Shown: in pieces, positions 4,880 through 64,000 of the stretch
Position numbering within the stretch: position 1 is the first letter of the stretch
How the letters are laid out: the number at the start of each line of letters is the position of its first letter
Source: a virus
Strand: one strand, 5' to 3'
DNA: 64,000 nt
Virus record (IMG/VR): IMGVR_UViG_3300020183_000046
Location: 1-64,000 of that record
Program-made: the position numbers and the translations under genes
The notes under the pieces: model-generated
Database searches by the model: none
What the model saw: only the letters and a program-made list of their open reading frames with translations
Told to the model about the DNA's origin: nothing

Positions 4880-4912
4880 TATTTATAAAAAGGGAGACCT
4901 TATTTGTCTCTC
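4880..4912 (-). promoter_or_regulatory. Intrinsic terminator immediately followed by T4 late promoter TATAAATA
   Basis: GAGAGAC-AAATAAG-GTCTCCC-TTTTT, then TATAAATA at 4880-4887. Confidence 0.7.
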
Positions 4913-50877: not shown

Positions 50878-53800
50878 TTAAACTTGATTTACGTTGAACC
50901 TAATACGTACATAATAAGTTGTGTTTGGATCTAAAGATACATCCTGTGGTAGAATGTATTGGGTCTTGTTAGCGGTGTTACCAAGTGATTGGTGAATGAT
51001 TGTTTGGAATTGGTTTGTTGGTGAAAACTGCCAATCACTAGATGTGTGTGCATATCCAGCTTTAACTTGTGCTGGGTCTACATTAATTGTTGGATTAAAC
51101 GCGGGAACAATTGTTTGGATAACTGGTTGATCTACGAATGGAGTTGTGAAGTTTTGAGCAGAAGTGTAAGAACTTTCAAGACCATTTTGGTCTCTGAATT
51201 TTACTTGAACACTATAAACAGTATCAAATGACAGAATTCCAGGTGGGACTGTAAATGTTGTTAGATTTCCAGTGTCACCTGCTGCAAAAATGCTTGCTGT
51301 ATCATAGATGATTGTGTTATCTCCAACTCTTTTGATTCTCCAGAAAGTTGAATAGTGAGTCGATCCAGTATATTGAGAAACAAATGCTGATGTAGTAATT
51401 GTAGGAGTTCTGGAGAATGTTTTCAGCGTATCTGGATCTGTTGTTACAGTCACAGTAGCTGGAGCACTTACAAACTCAGATTCATTTACAGTCAACGTTG
51501 CAACGCTAGAAGTTACAGTAGTTGCAGCAAGGTTTGTTAGCACACATCTATATTGTACGTTTGGAGTTGTTGGATATACAGTTGGGGCAGTTGTATAACT
51601 GGAAGAGTTCGCACCATTAATATTACTCCAGTTAGCTCCAGAGTTACTTGAGATTTGCCACTGATATGAAATTACATCACTAGTAATCGTTGCAATTACA
51701 GTAAAGGTTGCAGTAAATCCTTCAATAACAGCAACGCTTTGTGGTTGTGTTGTTATTGTAATTACTCTGAGAACTGTAAGTAATGCAAATGTTGATGTTT
51801 GTGATCCAGCAGAACCAGTGAGAGTTACAACGCAACGATAACGATCATTATTATCTTGAGTGTATACTAACTGAGGAGTCGTATATGATGAGTTGGTCGC
51901 ACCAGAAATATTAGAGTAGTTAACACCACCATCATCAGATCTTTGCCACTGATAAGATGGAGCTCCACTACTTGCGCTAACAGTTACTGAGAATGTAACA
52001 GTACTATTTTCATTTGCTGTTTGATTATTTGGATTTGCAGTAATTGTGAAAGTTCTTAGTACAGTTAATGTGACACTATTTGTGTATGCTGGCGCAGCTG
52101 CACCAGTAGCATCAATTTTACATCTGTAGCGATCTCCATTATCACTGGCATATGTAAGAGTTCCTGTTGTATATGATGCTGAAGTAGCTCCAGAGATATC
52201 TCCCCAGTTGCTTCCGCCATCATCTGATTTCTGCCACTGATATGTTACTGGTGGTTCGTGCTGGGACTGCAGAGATACTGAGTATGGATCTATGGAGTTA
52301 CCACTACCTGCAGAAGGAGTTGTGAAATCTTCAACGTCAAAGGAGGATGAAGCTGCATTAGCTCCAATCTGACCCATCGTTACATCACCAAGACATGTAA
52401 ATGTTGCCGTGGCATTTTCATTTGCAGTTTTATTTGTTGGTTGTTGAATAACTACTGGAGTTACTGTTTCTACTTGTAATGTTGCACTTCCCGAGTTGAC
52501 TGGAGTAGCTCCAGTACATGAAAGAACGCAACGATATCTTTGCTCATCATTTGATGCAGTTAATGTTGGAGTTGTATAAGTTGCTGTTGTTGCACCACTT
52601 CCTCCAACTACGTTAGACCACGATGCTCCACCATTAATTGAGAACTGCCACTGGTAGGTAATATCTCCAGGATCACTGTCGGAGGTTGTAGCTACAACGC
52701 TAAACTGTACTGTACCACCAACTGCTCCAGTTACATTTTGAGGTTGAGTTGTAACTGTAATTGTTCGAGTCAATAGCAGTTGAGCTGCACTTGACGTTAC
52801 TGGAGATGCTCCAGTTGCTGAGCAAATGCATCTATAGTAATGTCCAAAATCAGCATCGTATGTTGTTGCTCCTGTTGTATAAGACGCAGACGTTGCTCCA
52901 GATACTGATGTGTATGAGATACCATCGTTAGATTTTTCCCACTGATAAGATATTGATGCAGCATCAAGTGTAGATGCGGTTACGAAGAATGTGGCTGCAG
53001 CAGGAGCCACTGGAGTTTGGTTAGTTGGTTGAGTGCCAATAGTAACTACTCTGAATACTGTTAGTGTTGCTGAGTTTGTCGTTGTTGTTGCAACTGCAGT
53101 CGCACTGTTAAGAACACAACGATATTGATTGCCATTAAAAGCAAAATCATCATCTACGGTAAGAGTTCCAGTTGTTTCTCCACTATGTCCAGCAAGAGAA
53201 GAAATATTTGCCCAAGTAGAACCACCGTTTGTTGAACGCTGCCACTGAAAAGTAACGGTTGATCCATCATCTGCAGTACCAGCAGCAGTAAATGTTGCGT
53301 TAATACCAGCTCCCGCTTCTACTGAAGTATTTGATGGTTGAGTTGTGACAGTAATTGCTACCCCAGTGCCAGTAATTGTGAAGTTATAATTTCTAGACTG
53401 ACCAGTTGTAGTTTCAGTAACTGTAATATTATATGTAAGATTTTGATATGATGCAGTTACTGTACCAGAAAGAACACCAGTGGTTCCATTAAAGGTAAGA
53501 CCAGTTCCAGAAATACTAGTGCCACTTAAAGTGTAACCTTGAATTGTAATTGGTTCTGAAGCCCAAGTTGTAAGTGAACTAAGTCCAAGATTGAGATTGA
53601 TTGATGCTCCATTCGCAAAAGGAGTTCCAGTGAGAGAACCAGATGCTGCCGCCCAAGTTACTATGATATCAACATATGGATAAACGGATCCTCTATTAGT
53701 TGTACCTAAGCTTGAGAGATTAAAATCTACACCTGGATCTACTGGAATATTTTTAATAGCAGTGCTTGTACCTCCAGTCTCCTGGGCATCGGTTTGGGTA

Positions 53801-55950
53801 TACAGTTGAGTTCCACTAAATTCTGGTCCATCAGATGCTTCATGAGTTCCAGTTACAATAGCAAGATAATGACCAGATCCTCCAGCATTTGCCTGTGTTG
53901 ATAATCCAGAAGATGCCATAGTAACAGTAATTGTATAGTTCCCTGCATTTTGTGCAGAGATTGTCAACCACTGTGTACCTTGCTGTTGAATATTAACTCC
54001 ACCAACTGTTGTTCCTGATATAGCTCTTAACTGTACTTTCTTACCGACGTTTCCAATAAAGTATGCAGAATCTGCTGGATTGAAAGAGATAATTAAATTA
54101 CTTGATCCATTACTTACAGTAAATGGATTTGTTGGTAAAACTTTTTCTTCAATACTATTGATTGGATATTGATCTGTCCCACATCCATTTCCTAAGAAAT
54201 CAGCACCACTTCCCCTAACAAAAGATTTTGATAACTGTGGTAAGTATGGTGTTGTTCTTGTGTACGAATTTGCAGCGACCCAAGAAGCTAAAATACCAGT
54301 GACGATTGGGCAGGAGAAAGAAGTTCCGCTGATGATATCATAGTTAGATGTTGAGGTATAGACTGTGTTACTAGTCCAATCATACTTTGGAGAAACCAAT
54401 CTTATACCTGGAGCAGTAGTGGTTACACCACCACCATAGTTTGAAAAATATGCCCAACGGTCATTATATTCTGTTGCACCAACAGAAATTTTATTTTGAT
54501 TTGCATCAACTGAATTAAATACTGGATCACTATATCCAGCAGTTCTAGTACCTGCAATATACTTTCCTTGGATTGGACCAGCAAAATTGCCAGAGGTATC
54601 TACAAATCCATTACCAGCAGATCTAGCTAAAATAATATTGTAAGTATCAGTTACAGTCTTTTCAATTTCATCAAGCAATTCTACCTCAACTCCAGCATCA
54701 GTTCCAGCATCGTTGAGTTCAATATAAGGATATGATCCACTAGGAATTGTTGGACCAAATGATGCGTTGATAATAGCTGGACGATTGTTTCCTTTGTAGT
54801 TTGCATCTAAAGGATCGTTGTGATCAATTACTGCCTGATATGCCGATAAGATTTGAGAGTATGAAGAAGACAATCCGCTATTAAATGCCTTCAGTGAATA
54901 TATCCTTGCCTTTCTAGAAACACCTGCTGTTCTACCAGATGACATGATTGCACAGAAAGTTCCGTGACCATTATCATCTTCGTTATTAGTACCGTATGCT
55001 CCAGCATAGTGTGAGAGTTGATATACTCTATAGTTTTGTTGTTCTGCTGTACCGTTTAAGTTAGTTGCAAAATCTGGATCATAAAGTTCTGGGTGTAGTG
55101 CTGCGTTTGTTCCTGTTGGTCTGCTTGCTCCACGAACACCAGAATCAATAACATAGATGTCTACACCATCCCCAGTTTCAGTTGCACTAAATTCTCTATT
55201 GAGATATGAACGATCTGACTTTGTAATTCTATCCAGGTGCCAGTAATCATGAATATTAATTGTTCCATATAAATTTGGTGCTGCTTGATATCTGCCCATG
55301 CCAGAATGAACAGTACAATAGTAGAATAAAATGGATGGAGTCGTCGCTCCAACAACTATTCTAGTGTATGAACCAACAGTACCAGAAGTTCCAGATACAG
55401 ATACTCCAGATGTTAATTGGGTTCCACCACCATGAGTTCCATCTGGAGTTTCGGAAAATCTAAATGGGTGTCCAGCATTTGATGAGTGTGCAGTATCAAA
55501 TGTATATGTGCCACCCTGTAGGAATCCACTGAGGTTTAAGTATCTTATGTATATTCCACCAGATGTTTGAGAGAATGTATAAAAATTACTTCCACCAATA
55601 TTAGCAACTCTTACATATATTGTACCAGTGCCAGAAGTTGTAATATTTCTTGTTCCGTAAGTTGCATCCGCTGCTGCTTCATTTAAAGTTTCATCTTCAT
55701 GGGCAACAACATTCGATTCAACTGAATCTGCTGGATCACAAGTAACTTCCATATCCCATGTTGCCTGATGCCCTAATGAGCGAATATCATACAAGGCAGT
55801 TTCTTCGTTTTCCTCTGGTACATCAAAGGTAACGATACTAAAGCTTCTAAATTTCTCTACAAAAACTAAGTATCCAAATTGATCTAGGATAGAGTCCTTT
55901 GCCGCTTCTAGATCAGAATTATTGGTTACCTTGACTACTACCCTCTTCAT
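50878..55950 (-). CDS. S8 subtilisin-like serine protease with cupredoxin-like insert, six Ig-like repeats and FN3-like C-terminus
   Basis: Triad VIDSG / NGHGT / SGTSFSCP; oxyanion SAGN; six [FY]QW[QE]..YRC repeats. Confidence 0.88.
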   Translation of the reverse strand: MKRVVVKVTNNSDLEAAKDSILDQFGYLVFVEKFRSFSIVTFDVPEENEETALYDIRSLGHQATWDMEVTCDPADSVESNVVAHEDETLNEAAADATYGTRNITTSGTGTIYVRVANIGGSNFYTFSQTSGGIYIRYLNLSGFLQGGTYTFDTAHSSNAGHPFRFSETPDGTHGGGTQLTSGVSVSGTSGTVGSYTRIVVGATTPSILFYYCTVHSGMGRYQAAPNLYGTINIHDYWHLDRITKSDRSYLNREFSATETGDGVDIYVIDSGVRGASRPTGTNAALHPELYDPDFATNLNGTAEQQNYRVYQLSHYAGAYGTNNEDDNGHGTFCAIMSSGRTAGVSRKARIYSLKAFNSGLSSSYSQILSAYQAVIDHNDPLDANYKGNNRPAIINASFGPTIPSGSYPYIELNDAGTDAGVEVELLDEIEKTVTDTYNIILARSAGNGFVDTSGNFAGPIQGKYIAGTRTAGYSDPVFNSVDANQNKISVGATEYNDRWAYFSNYGGGVTTTAPGIRLVSPKYDWTSNTVYTSTSNYDIISGTSFSCPIVTGILASWVAANSYTRTTPYLPQLSKSFVRGSGADFLGNGCGTDQYPINSIEEKVLPTNPFTVSNGSSNLIISFNPADSAYFIGNVGKKVQLRAISGTTVGGVNIQQQGTQWLTISAQNAGNYTITVTMASSGLSTQANAGGSGHYLAIVTGTHEASDGPEFSGTQLYTQTDAQETGGTSTAIKNIPVDPGVDFNLSSLGTTNRGSVYPYVDIIVTWAAASGSLTGTPFANGASINLNLGLSSLTTWASEPITIQGYTLSGTSISGTGLTFNGTTGVLSGTVTASYQNLTYNITVTETTTGQSRNYNFTITGTGVAITVTTQPSNTSVEAGAGINATFTAAGTADDGSTVTFQWQRSTNGGSTWANISSLAGHSGETTGTLTVDDDFAFNGNQYRCVLNSATAVATTTTNSATLTVFRVVTIGTQPTNQTPVAPAAATFFVTASTLDAASISYQWEKSNDGISYTSVSGATSASYTTGATTYDADFGHYYRCICSATGASPVTSSAAQLLLTRTITVTTQPQNVTGAVGGTVQFSVVATTSDSDPGDITYQWQFSINGGASWSNVVGGSGATTATYTTPTLTASNDEQRYRCVLSCTGATPVNSGSATLQVETVTPVVIQQPTNKTANENATATFTCLGDVTMGQIGANAASSSFDVEDFTTPSAGSGNSIDPYSVSLQSQHEPPVTYQWQKSDDGGSNWGDISGATSASYTTGTLTYASDNGDRYRCKIDATGAAAPAYTNSVTLTVLRTFTITANPNNQTANENSTVTFSVTVSASSGAPSYQWQRSDDGGVNYSNISGATNSSYTTPQLVYTQDNNDRYRCVVTLTGSAGSQTSTFALLTVLRVITITTQPQSVAVIEGFTATFTVIATITSDVISYQWQISSNSGANWSNINGANSSSYTTAPTVYPTTPNVQYRCVLTNLAATTVTSSVATLTVNESEFVSAPATVTVTTDPDTLKTFSRTPTITTSAFVSQYTGSTHYSTFWRIKRVGDNTIIYDTASIFAAGDTGNLTTFTVPPGILSFDTVYSVQVKFRDQNGLESSYTSAQNFTTPFVDQPVIQTIVPAFNPTINVDPAQVKAGYAHTSSDWQFSPTNQFQTIIHQSLGNTANKTQYILPQDVSLDPNTTYYVRIRFNVNQV

Positions 55951-55963
55951 TCGGTAAGCACAA

Positions 55964-55998
55964 AAAAGTCCTCTGTTGTATTTATACAGAGGACTTTT
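55964..55998 (-). promoter_or_regulatory. 13-bp terminator hairpin with late promoter TATAAATA across its loop
   Basis: AAAAGTCCTCTGT-ATAAATACA-ACAGAGGACTTTT. Confidence 0.8.
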
Positions 55999-56505: not shown

Positions 56506-57216
56506 TTATTGTAAAAATGCATTAAATGTTAGACGGTTAGTACTCCACTCTCCTTGTTTAAAATATGGAGAATGCCAAAGTCTTCCCTCATACAACAATA
56601 CGGAATTATATTCATGAAGTTCAACATGATATCTTTCCCATTCTTTTGATTTATATTTTGATGGATCAAAATTAACAAAAGCATTAATATGATTTAGTGC
56701 TCTAGATGATCTGTAATTTTTATCAGAAGAAACAAATTCTTCACACAATTCAGTATTCCTAAAGAAAGCGGTTCCAGAATCTGTACCAACTAATTCTTCT
56801 GACTTATTCAAGCACAATACAGCAGCATAGTGAGTATCATCCGTGTGGGGTGATAGGCTACACATTCTACATTTTTCATTTACTTCATACATTTGAAAAG
56901 TAAAATCCGACATAGCTGGAATACTCATTACAGATCTACCAGCTTCAAAGTAAGTATGACAAGCAAATTTGAATGGCTCATTAAATTGTTTTGAGGTATG
57001 TCCAATTCTATGGACATATCCAGGTAAGTTTGTATATTCACCATTTAGCGTAGAAACATAATCACATGATAATGCATATGCTCTAACTGAATCTGGATTC
57101 TTGAAAAAATTTTTTATTTTGATTATACGATTTTTACTCTTACCAATATGTGTTTGCTCAACATCCCAATCTCTAGGATGATGTACTTCTAATATATCTG
57201 GATTAATTACTTTCAT
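56506..57216 (-). CDS. 2OG-Fe(II) oxygenase-like protein (DUF6445-like)
   Basis: NFFKNPD.VR; PHTD..YAAVLCLN; GTAFFR; WHSP; RLT. Confidence 0.75.
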   Translation of the reverse strand: MKVINPDILEVHHPRDWDVEQTHIGKSKNRIIKIKNFFKNPDSVRAYALSCDYVSTLNGEYTNLPGYVHRIGHTSKQFNEPFKFACHTYFEAGRSVMSIPAMSDFTFQMYEVNEKCRMCSLSPHTDDTHYAAVLCLNKSEELVGTDSGTAFFRNTELCEEFVSSDKNYRSSRALNHINAFVNFDPSKYKSKEWERYHVELHEYNSVLLYEGRLWHSPYFKQGEWSTNRLTFNAFLQ

Positions 57217-58963
57217 TTCCAAAATACTCATCAACTACTTTAGTTTTCTCTAAGACCAAAACATGAATTCCATTCCACCAGTGGGTAGGATTTTCTATTA
57301 TACCACTTAGAAGTTTTCTTTCAAAATAACAAGTTAAATTATTTTCCTTTACGAATTGTACAGTTCCTTCAACAACACCATCAAAATTAGCATCATCCAC
57401 AACCAAAATAAATTTATCATCTAAAAATGGTAAAATATGATTGAGGTTATTCATCTGCTCAATCATATCATGATTTGCATCATAGAAAACTACATTTGGT
57501 TTATATCCATCAAAGTCATCTTTAGTTAGTTCTTGAGCACTAGCTTTTATGAAAACGGAATTACCATTTTCATATTTTTCCCAGTGCTGAACAAGCATAT
57601 CATATGGATTTGATATTTCTGCCCATGAAACATGGGGCATCATGGGTTTACATTCTGGTTCAGAAAAATCGTCAACTCCAAAACATTTTGTAGCATTATT
57701 CATTCCTGCAGCAAAGAATGTACTTCCAATAAAAGTTCCAATCTCTAAGTATACTGAATCTTTATGCGAACATAAACTATTTAAAAAATGTCTAACTCTA
57801 TCAGAGGTCAATCCACGTACAATATAGTTTTCTGGGTTATAGTTTGAAGATCTTGTCAATCCATCATTAATTGCTTTTAATGTTCTCTTTGTAAATTCAT
57901 CAACTTCAGTTGGTCTTTCATCTCGTTTGAGATGAGATTCAACAACAGCTTCACAGTAATTACAATCCCAGCAATTAAACTGGCAAGTTTTAATTTTTTC
58001 TCTCCAAATATCAATTGGTTTTTTCTCCATGGATAAATCTTCCATGTAATTATTAAAGGTTGGAAAAAGTAAATCATCTTCTTTTGCCCACCTTTCAACA
58101 ATATCCATAGATTCTTTTAACTTCATGGTGTTTTCTCTACCATGCATTTTAAATACATCAATACCTAAATCTAAAAATTCATTCCAGTCCTCTCTCCATG
58201 GTGGGAGATTTGCAGATTTTAATGCATGTGAATTATCTTGAATATCCCAAAGAGCACATGAATTTGTACTAATTGGATCCATGAAATATTGAGGAATATT
58301 TTCAGTTCTAGTGTTATTAAAATGGTAGTGTTCATCCATCATGGAACATCCTCCCCAGCAACCCTCATTTGCCAAAAGAGAAAGTTCTACTGGTTTACCA
58401 ATAGATGCACAGTATTCCTTAGATTTTTTAATCTTAAGTAAGGAATCTCTATCTCTCATTAAATCCCTATCGAGATTAATATAATGAAACCCAGCATTAG
58501 CTAGTGATACAATCTCATTTGCTTTAGTTACATTTCTCAGGATTGTATTTTTAATTTTAAGTTCTGGAAATTCTTTTTGTATAATGCCAGAAGCAACCCA
58601 ACTGGTATGTGGAATAGTTGCTATTCTAACTCCATTATCATATAACTGTTTGAAGTTGTGTACAAATAGATCTAAATTTTCTTGGTCTGGTCTAACATAG
58701 ATATTATTGAATGTTGCGGATAATGGAATTCCTGCTGCATCTGCAATAGATTTTGCATTATAAAAAAGTTGCACAATATCTCCAGCAAAAACATCTCCCA
58801 TAGCATCATTAACAAATGGGGGCATTCTTGATGTAAAATAAAGATCTACAATATAATCTTTATATTTTTTTAACCAAGGAACAAATACTGTCTCTGCAAA
58901 TTTAGAATCAATCTTCGGATTTATTGGAAGACTGAAGACGAATTTTTTCTTTTGGGATGTCAT
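57203..58963 (-). CDS. Peptidase U32-family (Fe-S) domain fused to class I SAM methyltransferase
   Basis: INLDRDLMR; NEGCWGGC; DVFKMHGRE; CxxxCxxCxxC; then YLEIGTFIGST, GVDDF, FYDANH, VDD. Confidence 0.75.
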   Translation of the reverse strand: MTSQKKKFVFSLPINPKIDSKFAETVFVPWLKKYKDYIVDLYFTSRMPPFVNDAMGDVFAGDIVQLFYNAKSIADAAGIPLSATFNNIYVRPDQENLDLFVHNFKQLYDNGVRIATIPHTSWVASGIIQKEFPELKIKNTILRNVTKANEIVSLANAGFHYINLDRDLMRDRDSLLKIKKSKEYCASIGKPVELSLLANEGCWGGCSMMDEHYHFNNTRTENIPQYFMDPISTNSCALWDIQDNSHALKSANLPPWREDWNEFLDLGIDVFKMHGRENTMKLKESMDIVERWAKEDDLLFPTFNNYMEDLSMEKKPIDIWREKIKTCQFNCWDCNYCEAVVESHLKRDERPTEVDEFTKRTLKAINDGLTRSSNYNPENYIVRGLTSDRVRHFLNSLCSHKDSVYLEIGTFIGSTFFAAGMNNATKCFGVDDFSEPECKPMMPHVSWAEISNPYDMLVQHWEKYENGNSVFIKASAQELTKDDFDGYKPNVVFYDANHDMIEQMNNLNHILPFLDDKFILVVDDANFDGVVEGTVQFVKENNLTCYFERKLLSGIIENPTHWWNGIHVLVLEKTKVVDEYFGNESN

Positions 58964-59684
58964 ACTTCACTTCAGGTAATGTTGGTTTTTGGTCAGTCAA
59001 TTCAGACCCATTAATTTGTGGAGGTCTAAAGTCTTCAAGTTTTCCATTCAATATAGATTGCATAGCTGGTTCCATTTGTTTTTGCATATTTCCAATACCA
59101 GCACGAAGGAGAGATGAATGATGAACGGCTCCAGATAAAACTTGAATTTGATCTTCTGGTTGCATGTTCATAATTGAATCCATGTTTCCACTTCCAATAT
59201 TCCCAAAGGAAATGATATCAACGGCAGCTTGTTTTGCCATTCTACTGATCCAATATTTACGATCCTCTTCTTCATTATTTTTCAAATAGTATTCTTTACC
59301 AAGATTGGGATCGATATCTTTCTCTAATTCTTCTACGAAGTGCTCAACTTCTTTCTTGATAAGTCTATATTTCTGTTCCCAGATAGATTTATCATAGTGA
59401 GCTTTTTCAAGTTCGATCGCAATCATTTCTTTCTCAAGATCGTCTTGCTCTAATTTTAAAGCTCTTTCTAATTGTTTAATCTGAACAGTATTTTTCTTCA
59501 GACGATATTCAAGCTCTACCCTACTATTATCTCTCATCTGGAGTTCAAGAAAAGCTTGTTGAACTCTTTTGAATGGAGTTATTTGGGATCCACAAACAAA
59601 ATTTTGATTTTGGTATCTTGTTTGCCCACCCTCTAATTTGTAAGATAATTCAATCCAAGATTTTTCAGAATCCGAAAGTTCCAT
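58908..59684 (-). CDS. Helical hypothetical protein of the fibre-associated cassette
   Basis: YQ..NFV..SQITPFKR..Q..LEL; YWI.RMAKQAA.DI...G.I..GNMDSI. Confidence 0.7.
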   Translation of the reverse strand: MELSDSEKSWIELSYKLEGGQTRYQNQNFVCGSQITPFKRVQQAFLELQMRDNSRVELEYRLKKNTVQIKQLERALKLEQDDLEKEMIAIELEKAHYDKSIWEQKYRLIKKEVEHFVEELEKDIDPNLGKEYYLKNNEEEDRKYWISRMAKQAAVDIISFGNIGSGNMDSIMNMQPEDQIQVLSGAVHHSSLLRAGIGNMQKQMEPAMQSILNGKLEDFRPPQINGSELTDQKPTLPEVKYDIPKEKIRLQSSNKSED

Positions 59685-60597
59685 AAGCTAGTTCTCCATC
59701 AATTCGCTTTCCATTAGAATCGATTCTTCCCAGCATTTCTGCCTGCTTTATTGGCATACCTACATTCAAGTAATCTTCATACAAGATGTTGATATCCCAC
59801 ATATTATCACAGTTTTTAAACTGAGAACGAATCGCATGATATTTGCCCAACAAAGAGGCATAATCTATAAGATATTTATCATGATGATCAAGCACTCTTT
59901 TTACTAAAACTTCCTTTGCCATTCCTCTAGTCATGCAAAGAATATCTAAAAATGGAGTCTTTGCTTCTTCATTTTCTTTATATTTTCTTGCTTCTTCTAA
60001 CTGATAAATCCAAGATTCAGTTTCAACATCGCAGCAATTTTTAAAATTTTTAAATCGTAAATCAAATTCATGCTCAATAACTAAGATTGCTTGCTTTTTC
60101 ATGAAAGAAATTGCAAGTTGAATATTTTCTTTCGGTGTAATTTTCTTTACTTTTTCGAATTTGAGCTCTCCAGTATCAGTCATTACTTGCTCATATTCTT
60201 TGTAATGAGCTCTAGTTTCCCCCTGAAATCTTACTCCATGAGTAAATTCTTTTTCTGGAATCTCGACATATCTCCTAAAAGATGATTTGATTGTTTCAAA
60301 AACAATTTTATTCATCTTGATTGTAGAGACATTACAAAAATTATATAAAACAAAGTAAGTAGTTTCGTCGGCTTTAATGTCAGCCAACCTCAAAGCATCT
60401 TCATGGATCATCATGTAGATAAACCCTTCTTTGATCTTCTCTTTATCCTTAATAAATTTTCTTGTCTCTAATTCTAAAGGATGCTGTGGTTCATATTTTG
60501 GACGTAAAAAATCTTCCTCTTGAATTAAATCTTGAGGGATTCTTTCCTTCCAAGCAACATCAAATGATTTTTCTTCTATAAAATTACTTGTTTCCAT
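59665..60597 (-). CDS. Hypothetical protein with tail-fibre-assembly-like C-terminal motif
   Basis: E.ESW..Q.EEA..Y......TPFLD.L...RG....LV..V. Confidence 0.6.
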   Translation of the reverse strand: METSNFIEEKSFDVAWKERIPQDLIQEEDFLRPKYEPQHPLELETRKFIKDKEKIKEGFIYMMIHEDALRLADIKADETTYFVLYNFCNVSTIKMNKIVFETIKSSFRRYVEIPEKEFTHGVRFQGETRAHYKEYEQVMTDTGELKFEKVKKITPKENIQLAISFMKKQAILVIEHEFDLRFKNFKNCCDVETESWIYQLEEARKYKENEEAKTPFLDILCMTRGMAKEVLVKRVLDHHDKYLIDYASLLGKYHAIRSQFKNCDNMWDINILYEDYLNVGMPIKQAEMLGRIDSNGKRIDGELAYGTFGF

Positions 60598-60730
60598 CTT
60601 TATTCTTAAGTTCTTCTATTTCTTTTTTTAGATTTTCTACTTCTAACTTAAGATATTTAAATTCTTCATATAGAACAAAATCTGGTCTATTGAAAAACAT
60701 ATTATTACTACTTCCAGTTTTTGATGACAT
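60584..60730 (-). CDS. Small coiled-coil peptide (48 aa)
   Basis: Manual translation ...EEFKYLKLEVENLKKEIEELKNK; TAATG coupling. Confidence 0.55.
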   Translation of the reverse strand: MSSKTGSSNNMFFNRPDFVLYEEFKYLKLEVENLKKEIEELKNKDGNK

Positions 60731-62160
60731 TACTGATACCTCCTACCAGTTACTGCAAATGCACCACTCACACATGCTCCAGAAGATTGCCCTTGGTGAC
60801 CTTTTGGCTCGGACTTAAATCCAAGAACAATATCAGAATCATTAGCATAAAAACGCTTCCACGTCCTATTGTTCTGATAGTTTCCTCCAGCATCTCCATA
60901 ATTTCCTAAGCAATATCCCCAGTCTTGTCCCTCTTCCATGTTTTCTTCTCCACTTGCAACATCTTTTTGGTTGAATTGTGATCCAATAGTAGTCGCAGTG
61001 AGATCATTAAATTTAATCCAAGGTAAAGTTACGTTTGCTCCAGCTCCATGATAGCAGTGACCCCATTTAGATGAAAGATTTTTTTTCCATCCATCATTAG
61101 TTCCCCAGCTAGTCAAGGTGTAACTAGTAACACTTTCACTACTAAATGTGACATAAACTGCATTTGAGTTATCTCCAAACAAATATCCTCTAGTTTCCCC
61201 TTCGCATCCAGTGGCATTACCATTAGTAAATCCACCAGCTAAACGAGTTGACATTTCAGTAATAAAGTTTAATCTTTGAATACTTGCTGGTCCACCACCA
61301 GCAGTATATCCTCTTTGAGTCACAAAACCAGAAACAGAACCTGGGTCGTCAGTACTATCCCAAGTATCCATGGAAGCACCGAGACTATCTGGAGTAGTGC
61401 TATAAGCGTCTCCGTGACCTGGACTGCCATTCGGACCAAATGTTCTATTCGTTCCGTTATGTAAGTTTATACTAGAAACAGATGCACCAGATCCACCGTA
61501 TGCGTTTTCTGTTCCAAATACATATCCATTAAAATCTCCAAAGTTTCCATCTACATACGATGCTGCTCTATCCAGCTGATCACCGCGAGAAATAGTAATA
61601 TCGGTTGCATGGAAAGTTTGATTTACAGTTCTCCATGGATTTGATCCACGGTATCCACCGATCAAAAATCCATGAGTAAAAATACTTCTATATCTAAAAC
61701 TTGATCCAACAGTAATATTATATAATGCCCCAGTAGAATCATACCACTGACCAGTTCCAGTATAGGGCAAATAATATGCACTAGATATTGTTGGATTTTG
61801 CCCTCCAGCAAGAGTAGTTGTTGATGGAGTGGATCTATACGTACCAAATTCATTTGAAAATGTTGTTAAACTCCCACCAGTATTCGGTCCTGTTGGTTGA
61901 GTTGCCCAATATGCTCCAGCACCAACACTTTCATTTGGCACAGCATTAGCCCAAAAAGCATTTTGTCCATCTGACATCAATACCGATCCAGCAGTTGCTG
62001 GAGATTGATTTGGGATTGCTGCAAATGGTTGACCGTTTTGAAGTAACTGACCCGTGAAGTTAATATTTCCAGTTACATCAACATTTTTTGGAATAGCTAC
62101 TGTGGTCCCACCGCTGGTTAAAGTATTGGCTTGTACAGTAGTGGTAGTTACCTGAGACAT
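60730..62160 (-). CDS. Putative virion fibre-tip protein with propeller-like repeats
   Basis: Fibre-like N-terminus; repeated G[YF]..GG units (HGFLIGGY, RGYTAGG, RGYLFG, WGYCLG). Confidence 0.6.
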   Translation of the reverse strand: MSQVTTTTVQANTLTSGGTTVAIPKNVDVTGNINFTGQLLQNGQPFAAIPNQSPATAGSVLMSDGQNAFWANAVPNESVGAGAYWATQPTGPNTGGSLTTFSNEFGTYRSTPSTTTLAGGQNPTISSAYYLPYTGTGQWYDSTGALYNITVGSSFRYRSIFTHGFLIGGYRGSNPWRTVNQTFHATDITISRGDQLDRAASYVDGNFGDFNGYVFGTENAYGGSGASVSSINLHNGTNRTFGPNGSPGHGDAYSTTPDSLGASMDTWDSTDDPGSVSGFVTQRGYTAGGGPASIQRLNFITEMSTRLAGGFTNGNATGCEGETRGYLFGDNSNAVYVTFSSESVTSYTLTSWGTNDGWKKNLSSKWGHCYHGAGANVTLPWIKFNDLTATTIGSQFNQKDVASGEENMEEGQDWGYCLGNYGDAGGNYQNNRTWKRFYANDSDIVLGFKSEPKGHQGQSSGACVSGAFAVTGRRYQ

Positions 62161-63077: not shown

Positions 63078-63103
63078 TTTCTAAAATGACTATACAGGGT
63101 TAT

Positions 63104-64000
63104 TTATACGATGCTCCAGTATCCGCCACTATTGATGGTAACCGTAGTTCCATTTGCAATTGTGATTGGACCTGCGCTCATACAATTATCTCCATTAGCA
63201 ACAATTACATTTTCTGCTACTGTATTACGATTGCGCTTGAAGATTCCGTAAGTATCAATCCACTGCTTATCCCCAGTTGCTCTCAGAACAGTTGTCTTCT
63301 GACCACTAGCGAGTGCTTCTGCTGCGTTGATATTAATACCACTCTTAGCTCTTACTTCAAGTGCGTAAGTTGTCTGGAAGTAATCGGTGCCACTATTTCC
63401 ACCGAGCGTCATGGTGCCAGTATCAGTTAATGTGGCAACACAATTATCATTATCGGATCTCCAAACAAAATCATCTCCTGTTCTAAAGTATGTTGTGCCA
63501 TCAGTAGCAAAGAAGAATCTTTGTTGGGCATCAGTCGAAGTGATCCAAACATTAGTTGAACCTCCCAGGTACGGAAGCGTCAGTGCAGAGTAACCATCGA
63601 GCAGGTCAGCGTTCAGGTTGGTAACAACCGTAGTAGAACTAACCGTGAATGGTGCTGTTCCTGTAGCAACGCTAGATTCAAAGGTTGGAGATATCATCTT
63701 CACGTTAGCTGTAACATTACCATTTATGGCAATTGTTAAAGCATCAGTTCTAGTTGTTGGGAATAGTTGATTTCCATTACTGCTTGTTTGAGAAATTCTA
63801 AATAAACCACTCAACTGACCAATAGACCAGTGGGCAGTATCTATATCATGCAATTTGATACCAATACCATTACCAAAAGTTCTGCTTGCTACAGCATCAC
63901 CAATACGCATCCATGGAGCGTTTTGATCCAATCCAAGAGCGTTAACATCATTTGCATCTGTTCCAGCATTAAGAAGTCTCAGAATTGCATCGGTTTGAAC
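63104..64000 (-). CDS. Tail fibre protein, C-terminal part (5' end outside window)
   Basis: Frame open to the window edge; GTAPF.V.STT.V.NLNADLLDG and terminal SAGPITI..G.TVTI..G..W.IV motifs. Confidence 0.8.
   Translation of the reverse strand, partial: VQTDAILRLLNAGTDANDVNALGLDQNAPWMRIGDAVASRTFGNGIGIKLHDIDTAHWSIGQLSGLFRISQTSSNGNQLFPTTRTDALTIAINGNVTANVKMISPTFESSVATGTAPFTVSSTTVVTNLNADLLDGYSALTLPYLGGSTNVWITSTDAQQRFFFATDGTTYFRTGDDFVWRSDNDNCVATLTDTGTMTLGGNSGTDYFQTTYALEVRAKSGININAAEALASGQKTTVLRATGDKQWIDTYGIFKRNRNTVAENVIVANGDNCMSAGPITIANGTTVTINSGGYWSIV

Follow-up and report, generated by a model that had tools for sequence, protein, structure and literature searches.

What does the protein P0001 do, and on which substrate, given that it joins a barrel resembling those of the U32 family to a methyltransferase dependent on S-adenosylmethionine (SAM) within a single chain of 586 amino acids (aa)? 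Its gene lies in the window analyzed here, a stretch of 64,000 nucleotides (nt) that corresponds to positions 1-64,000 of the record IMGVR_UViG_3300020183_000046, a phage fragment estimated to be 42% complete, and that belongs to a T4-like cyanomyovirus (Kyanoviridae). The reading proposed here, to which a probability of about 50% is given, is that P0001 performs two tailoring steps as part of a probably late cyanophage cassette, in which an iron-sulfur (Fe-S) barrel would hydroxylate the substrate and the fused domain would then O-methylate it.

The U32 systems UbiU/UbiV, TrhP, and RlhA are Fe-S proteins needed to hydroxylate aromatic or heteroaromatic carbons by a route that depends on prephenate and not on O2. 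They constitute one of the few routes to oxygen-independent hydroxylation, the mechanism of which is still unsettled. To our knowledge, only three U32 substrates have been described, namely ubiquinone precursors, U34 of transfer RNA (tRNA), and C2501 of 23S ribosomal RNA. UbiU/UbiV thus act on the quinone ring, and TrhP and RlhA on C5 of RNA pyrimidines (PMC6747719; PMC6599085). In Bacillus subtilis, trhP1 and trhP2 share an operon with the methyltransferase gene trmR (PMC6599085), which confirms the co-location stated in the first-pass annotation of this DNA.

That annotation had described a 586-aa fusion with the motifs EGCWGGC, FKMHGRE, and CxxxCxxCxxC, whose gene overlaps the next one downstream, and all of the motifs are present, as is the overlap, which amounts to 14 nt. 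They are found at residues 199-206 (NEGCWGGC), 271-277 (FKMHGRE), and 327-337 (CQFNCWDCNYC). The AlphaFold2 model of the N-terminal domain, built from an alignment of 60 sequences, is a (beta/alpha)8 barrel with a mean predicted local distance difference test score (pLDDT) of 93.6 and a predicted template modeling score of 0.92. When 48,161 solved chains were searched with this model, the first match was the U32 protein Mk0906 (5d88), with a Z score of 16.7 and a root-mean-square deviation of 3.2 A over 228/247 residues. The next matches were unrelated triosephosphate isomerase (TIM) barrels with Z scores of 12.4 or less, that is, 4.3 Z under 5d88. Foldseek, a comparison that had been suggested for both halves along with the first-pass annotation, returned many TIM barrels at similar E-values for the N-terminal model, and the best template modeling scores (TM-scores, 0.53/0.71) were again those of 5d88.

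Sequence comparisons also connect the phage family with U32. Two proteins of 390 and 402 aa from a proteobacterial metagenome-assembled genome (MAG) pass the U32 model PF01136 with 38.9 and 36.5 bits (cut-off 22.4); scored with the phage-family profile, they reach 74.5 and 46.2 bits, and because the same proteins satisfy both profiles, they link the two groups. These bridging proteins have the C-x3-C ... C set as well as the C-terminal four-Cys motif. The two belong to a set of bona fide U32 genes taken from five genomes that also encode distant relatives of the phage family, and hhalign of the phage family against clear U32 proteins gave a probability of 76% and an E-value of 2.2e-5 over 132 columns of the barrel. 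Aligning both groups jointly superimposes C202, C206, and C236 on Cys 2, 3, and 4 of the U32 cluster, and FKMHGR on K-x-E-G-R.

The conservation of these residues shows that the motifs did not arise by chance. Across 60 aligned homologues, whose mean column identity is 24%, seven Cys (C202, C206, C236, C327, C331, C334, and C337) are invariant in 60/60, and E200, E211, H212, D269, K272, G275, and R276 are conserved in at least 90%. The same seven Cys are kept in a distant subfamily of 23 sequences that was aligned separately. Their conservation and position suggest that the Cys triad of the barrel and the C-terminal four-Cys motif are Fe-S or other metal sites. Among characterized proteins, TrhP cannot do without the Glu or without Cys 1 and Cys 2 of the U32 motif (PMC6599085).

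The barrel, the Cys that follow the same strand, and K-x-x-G-R are thus features that P0001 shares with the U32 family (UbiU/UbiV, TrhP/YegQ, RlhA/YdcP; 5d88). The spacing of the Cys is C-x3-C-x(~29)-C in the family of P0001, whereas it is C-x6-C-x15-C-x3/4-C in U32 proteins, and the classical members lack the invariant C-x3-C-x2-C-x2-C that is found after the barrel in the phage protein. P0001 also differs from them by the absence of Peptidase_U32_C, by its fused methyltransferase, and by being encoded by a phage.

For the C-terminal half, in which a class I methyltransferase had been recognized at first pass, the assignment was borne out by Pfam matches on homologues and by fold searches. 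Methyltransf_24 (PF13578) scores 25.1 bits on P0001, with a cut-off of 26.3; most homologues have a precomputed match to PF13578, and Methyltransf_24 is also found in 26/30 Atlas neighbors of this half, some clusters of which score RMNT_CmcI or Methyltransf_3 in addition. The structural matches of the C-terminal model (pLDDT 83.9) are headed by O-methyltransferases, namely the mannoside O-methyltransferase MeT1 (6g7d, Z 15.3), TrmR (5zw3, Z 15.0), an O-methyltransferase of Mycobacterium tuberculosis (5x7f, Z 14.9), and the rhamnosyl O-methyltransferase SpnH (4cdz, Z 14.4), with identities to the solved matches of 12-18%. Using Foldseek, all top matches are class I methyltransferases, and the best TM-score is that of B. 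subtilis TrmR.

An alignment of stand-alone and fused homologues of this half from phage contigs places motif I at YLEIGTFIGST (405-415), followed by GVDDF (429-433), FYD (493-495), DDxN (523-526), and WWNG (562-565). E407, G409, G413, T415, and D431, the Asp after strand 2, are invariant in it, as are FYD, DDxN, and WWNG, the first two of which supply an acidic set made up of D495, D523, D524, and N526. This FYD/DDxN set recalls how COMT-like enzymes bind their metal, and its residues may be equivalent to the ligands there. P0001 has the fold, motif I, and, putatively, FYD/DDxN in common with the O-methyltransferases of the Methyltransf_3 and Methyltransf_24 families (COMT, CCoAOMT, MeT1, SpnH, CmcI), but it is set apart from the solved cation-dependent enzymes by its low identity, by a Pfam score just under the cut-off, and by its fusion to a putative Fe-S barrel. 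On the basis of these models, the C-terminal half is predicted to be a class I methyltransferase of the COMT/TrmR-like type.

Several results weigh against a hydroxylating U32 enzyme coupled to an O-methyltransferase. PF01136 does not match P0001 at E-values up to 1, nor does it match anywhere in the phage record when all six frames are searched at E-values up to 10. The U32 signature, which we take to be E-x-F-x2-G-[SA]-[LIVM]-C-x4-G-x-C-x-[LIVM]-S and which fits three bona fide U32 proteins that were fetched, is matched by 0/60 members of the phage family. The hhalign probability is no higher than 76%, and no solved or characterized member of the U32-like phage family was found. The four-Cys motif that contains the U32 ligand positions (Pelosi et al., PMC6747719) is not present, since the first cluster Cys, which is essential in both TrhP and RlhA (PMC6599085), has no counterpart. 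Because this Cys is missing, the cluster may have another geometry, or the reaction may be something other than hydroxylation. As to the C-terminal half, generic RNA methyltransferases and others score within ~1 Z of the O-methyltransferases, so that O-methylation is favored but not proven.

Other searches with the N-terminal domain were uninformative as to its function. An exhaustive phmmer search yielded 280 cluster representatives of its family, many of them stand-alone and 330-460 aa long. When 20 representatives were scanned with Pfam, no family exceeded its curated cut-off in any of them, PF01136 included. Scans of Pfam, NCBIfam, and PHROG gave no function for the domain, and sequence and profile searches of the PDB with P0001, the family profiles A1 and A2, and P0002, the product of the downstream gene, gave insignificant matches only. 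With the signature and Cys 1 absent and an extra four-Cys motif present, the N-terminal half is classed here as a putative, very divergent branch of the U32 superfamily, outside PF01136 proper. What stands of the U32 domain claimed at first pass is thus the fold, with 5d88 as first match, the bridging sequences, and the alignment of the motifs; membership in PF01136, the signature, and the first cluster Cys do not.

The neighborhoods of 80 IMG/VR loci were counted, and in many of them a U32-like gene (~346 aa) and a methyltransferase gene (~229 aa) are adjacent and separate, while others have fused forms of 540-565 aa. That they are split in some loci and fused in others speaks strongly for a joint function of the two halves. 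The products of the B. subtilis operon trhP1-trhP2-trmR (yrrN-yrrO-yrrM), which make 5-methoxyuridine in tRNA, show the same pairing of U32 and COMT-like proteins. P0001 differs from them in that it is a single polypeptide, with adjacent genes in some phages, and in that no RNA-binding module or RNA-related neighbor was seen. The analogy with TrhP and TrmR is apt, since the structures most similar to the C-terminal model include TrmR.

The best-supported mechanism, by this analogy, would follow the logic of TrhP plus TrmR. C202, C206, C236, and a fourth ligand would hold a [4Fe-4S] cluster at the mouth of the barrel, and C327-x3-C-x2-C-x2-C337 would bind either a metal or another cluster. Oxidation of the substrate by the barrel, most likely a hydroxylation, would provide a hydroxyl, which the fused COMT/TrmR-like and probably metal-dependent O-methyltransferase would methylate to methoxy.

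The fusion family was found in 126 cultured phage records, 123 of cyanophages and three of Ralstonia jumbo phages. The cyanophages include S-SSM2 as well as the much-studied P-SSM4, P-HM2, Syn19, Syn33, and S-RIM2, in which the gene is still annotated as 'hypothetical'; in P-SSM4 the counterpart of P0001 is T4-GC 354 (PSSM4_035). The nearest cultured relatives are the Synechococcus phages S-CAM4 and ACG-2014j (68% protein identity for P0001). In public metagenomes, at least 1,925 proteins match at E-values of 0.001 or less, among 8,000 candidates scored. No description of the fusion was found in the literature on cyanophage U32, phage U32, or DUF6445. The deposited start of the S-CAM4 orthologue (CDS C440309_103, 527 aa) lies ~54 codons within the conserved N-terminus, and it is probably mis-annotated, as it would delete the first strand of the barrel.

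In the window, P0001 belongs to a cassette that sits between fiber and neck genes (Table 1), and the minus strand carries all genes of this stretch. P5, the candidate substrate among them, is represented by one to three tandem paralogues in related phages. As for P0002, the listed open reading frame, 56506-57234 (-), opens at a TTG at 57234, and 12/12 aligned homologues start at its Met7; the shorter form, which overlaps the last 14 nt of P0001, was retained for this reason.

Table 1. Features of the cassette that encodes P0001, in window coordinates.
Feature	Coordinates	Strand	Basis or remark
Late-promoter site (T4-type consensus TATAAATA) upstream of cassette	63101..63108	-	consensus scan
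P0005 (P5), phrog_1417, 476-aa Gly/Ser/Thr-rich fiber-like protein	60730..62160	-	candidate substrate
P0004 (P4), phrog_1604, 310 aa, no assigned function	59665..60597	-	syntenic in marine phages
P0003 (P3), phrog_1409, 258-aa helical protein	58908..59684	-	3' end overlaps start of P0001 by 56 nt
P0001, 586-aa fusion of U32-like barrel, Cys-rich linker, and predicted O-methyltransferase	57203..58963	-	phrog_1458
Predicted N-terminal (beta/alpha)8 barrel, residues 1-345, U32 superfamily	57929..58963	-	model, fold match, bridging proteins, hhalign
Barrel Cys triad NEGC202WGGC206 ... C236	58256..58369	-	invariant; aligned with U32 cluster Cys 2-4
FKMHGRE, residues 271-277	58133..58153	-	K272, G275, R276 nearly invariant; aligned with U32 K-x-E-G-R
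C327-x3-C331-x2-C334-x2-C337, candidate second metal/Fe-S site	57953..57985	-	four invariant Cys after barrel
Predicted class I SAM methyltransferase domain, ~residues 370-586	57206..57856	-	Pfam, fold search, motifs
P0002, DUF6445, Fe(II)/2-oxoglutarate oxygenase-like, 236 aa	56506..57216	-	ATG at 57214-57216; invariant H130, D132, H221, R234

The T4-type late-promoter consensus TATAAATA occurs eight times in the window (at 4880, 7432, 18846, 19450, 38506, 43704, 55979, and 63101), with 8/8 copies on the minus, coding strand and a chance expectation of 3.3 over both strands. The copy upstream of the cassette and the next one after it, at 55979-55986 (-), bracket the cassette. With no further copy between these two sites, the cassette probably constitutes one late transcription unit, and P0001 would be expressed late. 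A scan for sigma-70 promoters was at chance level (33 seen, 31.5 expected) and is uninformative. The gene at 50878-55950 (-), between the cassette and the neck genes, encodes 1690 aa that include Ig-like domains (49.5 bits with Pfam Ig_3), and the copy at 55979-55986 belongs to it.

P3 is the most widely conserved viral neighbor of the U32-like gene. The gene order P5-P4-P3-fusion is found in S-CAM4 and P-SSM4, and the synteny of P5, P4, and P3 extends to most of the 80 IMG/VR loci. The genes of these loci come in the order one to three P5 paralogues, P3, P4, often a radical SAM gene, the U32-like gene, and the methyltransferase gene; the radical SAM protein, of 333 aa, is present in 64/80. 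In the Ralstonia jumbo phage RP31 (277 kb), the barrel occurs alone, as ORF136, and is directly preceded by the P3 homologue ORF137, which scores 116 bits against the P3 profile. ORF135, which comes after ORF136, is a permease-like DUF401 membrane protein related to CitMHS. The trio ORF137-ORF136-ORF135 is located in a non-structural neighborhood, near genes for deoxycytidine triphosphate (dCTP) deaminase and nucleotide metabolism. The profiles of P3 and P4 gave no PDB match, and no longer, fused forms of P3 were found, which is weak evidence.

DUF401 genes orthologous to that of RP31 are present in 50/80 IMG/VR loci and in 12 phage records, 12/12 of which also carry the U32-like gene. They are direct neighbors in S-H25, MbCM1, and RP12/RP31, whereas 56 kb separate them in S-CAM4. 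The viral partner seen most constantly is P3, and radical SAM and DUF401 proteins are frequent ones elsewhere; no match to Radical_SAM, 2OG-FeII_Oxy_3, or DUF401 was found anywhere in the phage record studied here, a 42% complete fragment. Homologues of Trp halogenases occur in 9/80 IMG/VR loci, and in some cases the fusion is directly followed by a pair of genes for flavin-dependent Trp halogenases, of 508 and 393 aa.

More distant homologues have other surroundings. That of one distant T4-like phage from the sea is found among three GT9-like glycosyltransferases, a 2-oxoglutarate (2OG) oxygenase, a NodU/CmcH-type carbamoyltransferase, and a DUF6445 gene, in a cluster just upstream of the neck genes. 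Contigs binned to Pelagibacterales, Nitrososphaerales, and Chloroflexota MAGs share a gene order that includes the T4 neck and gp15 genes, and the three most likely represent one marine phage type that was mis-binned into cellular genomes. The chromosome of Dehalogenimonas sp. XYDCF encodes three seven-Cys U32-like paralogues, each among reductive dehalogenase genes, and two of the three adjoin a 715-aa fusion of a B12-radical SAM enzyme with PqqD, a peptide-recognition domain. The bridging MAG proteins adjoin a B12-radical SAM enzyme and lipid-type genes. On a contig of an Arcobacteraceae MAG, U32-like paralogues of 539 and 553 aa occur in tandem, an arrangement reminiscent of the UbiU/UbiV or TrhP1/TrhP2 pairs.

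These contexts bear on the substrate. The probable late expression, the synteny with fiber genes, the constancy of P3, and the tailoring enzymes among the neighbors argue for a side chain of a protein or peptide, or for a small aromatic target; the tailoring neighbors that point to a peptide or aromatic target are the radical SAM proteins, the PqqD fusion, the Trp halogenases, and the 2OG oxygenases. The first choice, albeit a tentative one that falls well short of even odds, is a side chain of a protein or peptide, with P3 and the fiber-like P5 as the candidates. A small molecule, favored by the DUF401 permease, comes next and is itself somewhat unlikely, and glycans, favored by the glycosyltransferase context, and RNA or DNA, favored by the U32 precedents, are to be considered as improbable targets, to the same degree. 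The contexts conflict, which also counts against the proposed reading: fiber genes in cyanophages are opposed to permease and nucleotide genes in RP31, and glycosyltransferases are found in the marine phage and lipid-type genes next to the bridging bacterial homologues. Altogether, the context suggests a peptide, protein, or small-molecule target at least as much as an RNA, fiber, or glycan one.

If the glycosyltransferases of the distant marine phage are taken as the guide, P0001 might instead tailor glycans, that is, O-methylate a sugar on a virion protein or envelope glycan, with the barrel performing sugar redox chemistry such as dehydration or deoxygenation in place of aromatic hydroxylation. 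The top match of the methyltransferase half, MeT1, acts on mannosides, SpnH and CalS11, which methylate rhamnosyl groups, are among its other matches, and one Atlas cluster carries RMNT_CmcI; the carbamoyltransferase next to the glycosyltransferases would fit as well. This context, however, comes from one lineage only, in the form of three near-identical contigs, and there is no glycosyltransferase in the cassettes of the window, S-CAM4, or P-SSM4. Moreover, we know of no U32 protein that acts on sugars. The glycan proposal is accordingly unlikely, even if it fares best among the alternatives.

Only slightly less probable is a modification of RNA or DNA bases, in which the barrel would hydroxylate C5 of a pyrimidine in tRNA, ribosomal RNA, or DNA of the host or the phage and the methyltransferase would make a 5-methoxy base (similar to 5-methoxyuridine), thereby retuning late translation. 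Two of the three characterized U32 systems, TrhP and RlhA, act on C5 of RNA pyrimidines, a direct precedent for the association of U32 and COMT-like proteins exists in the trhP1-trhP2-trmR operon, and TrmR, the O-methyltransferase of 5-hydroxyuridine, is among the top matches of the C-terminal domain (Z 15.0, best TM-score). The similarity to TrmR, however, is tied with that to O-methyltransferases of sugars and small molecules. Pfam finds no RNA-binding domain in P0001, which does not have the Peptidase_U32_C of TrhP either; no tRNA gene is present in the 64-kb window, and the conserved neighbors are P3, fiber-like proteins, radical SAM enzymes, halogenases, and a permease rather than RNA enzymes.

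A third proposal concerns the chemistry of the barrel rather than its target. The invariant C327-x3-C331-x2-C334 has the spacing of radical SAM enzymes, the domain is a TIM barrel, and the family repeatedly adjoins radical SAM and B12-radical SAM genes, so that P0001 might be a non-canonical enzyme of this kind, whose C-x3-C-x2-C cluster would cleave SAM while the barrel would carry out radical chemistry. The motif, however, comes after the barrel, whereas radical SAM enzymes have it after strand 1, and there is a fourth invariant Cys behind it. There is no match to Radical_SAM (PF04055) in Pfam or NCBIfam, and no radical SAM chain appears among the top 50 structural matches, at the top of which U32 stands alone. 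On these grounds (motif position, PF04055, and structures), the canonical radical SAM reading was rejected, and the presence of a separate radical SAM gene next door argues for a different role of P0001; the non-canonical version is very unlikely. Finally, a peptidase that would, for instance, process fiber proteins has in its favor the historical 'collagenase' name of U32 and the closeness to fiber genes only, and it was rejected as hardly credible, given that the characterized U32 members are Fe-S hydroxylation factors and that a methyltransferase fusion and seven invariant Cys fit redox tailoring rather than proteolysis.

The hydroxylation and O-methylation proposed for P0001 had been coupled, in the first-pass annotation, to the 2OG oxygenase encoded by the overlapping gene. 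The identity of P0002 was upheld by its residues and its family: it matches DUF6445 (PF20043) with 51.9 bits (cut-off 24), as do all close homologues, and the set H130, D132, H221, and R234 (HxD...H...R) is invariant in 13 sequences, down to 24% identity. It shares this H-x-D...H...R set with Fe(II)/2OG oxygenases, and DUF6445 is related to 2OG-FeII_Oxy_3, for which 47% of the members of one bacterial DUF6445 Atlas cluster also score. P0002 is thus very probably an Fe(II)/2OG oxygenase, although we know of no characterized DUF6445 member. The coupling proved not to be conserved. A close DUF6445 homologue adjoins the fusion in only 8/126 phage records, those of S-CAM4, ACG-2014j, and S-H9-1, and elsewhere the fusion is followed by denV (P-SSM4), an esterase gene, a tail-fiber gene, two Trp halogenases, or a 2OG-FeII_Oxy_5 or DUF401 protein. 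This lack of conservation weakens the case for P0001 and P0002 as a hydroxylate-then-methylate pair, and because of it DUF6445 is an accessory, lineage-specific neighbor, outside the conserved core; its product would add a further, lineage-specific oxidation. The prediction of a complex between P0001 and P0002 scored 0.01, relative to a mark of 0.32, and bears neither way. In RefSeq, some homologues of DUF6445 are labeled 'minor coat protein' (NC_031900.1, NC_026926.1, NC_070961.1), as in phrog_1644; no evidence for a coat role was found, and their residues are those of the 2OG oxygenase set.

In a broader and rather speculative view, which is doubtful as it stands, P3 and the seven-Cys barrel would form the core of a phage pathway, to which the methyltransferase, radical SAM, DUF401, halogenase, and 2OG oxygenase genes would be lineage-specific additions. 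With no greater likelihood, this pathway might perform O2-independent hydroxylation and methoxylation of an aromatic group on a ribosomally made protein (P3 or the fiber-like P5) or on some small compound that the permease transports. If this is true, phages carry a tailoring cluster similar to those of natural products, and U32 chemistry extends to a new class of substrates.

The seven-Cys branch is abundant, and its distinct set of Cys and its fusion to the presumed follow-on enzyme make it a compact system for biochemistry. The product of P0001 would give a function to a conserved cassette of cyanophages, and it may turn out to be a modification of virions, of RNA, or of a metabolite with a bearing on the infection of the main phototrophs of the ocean.

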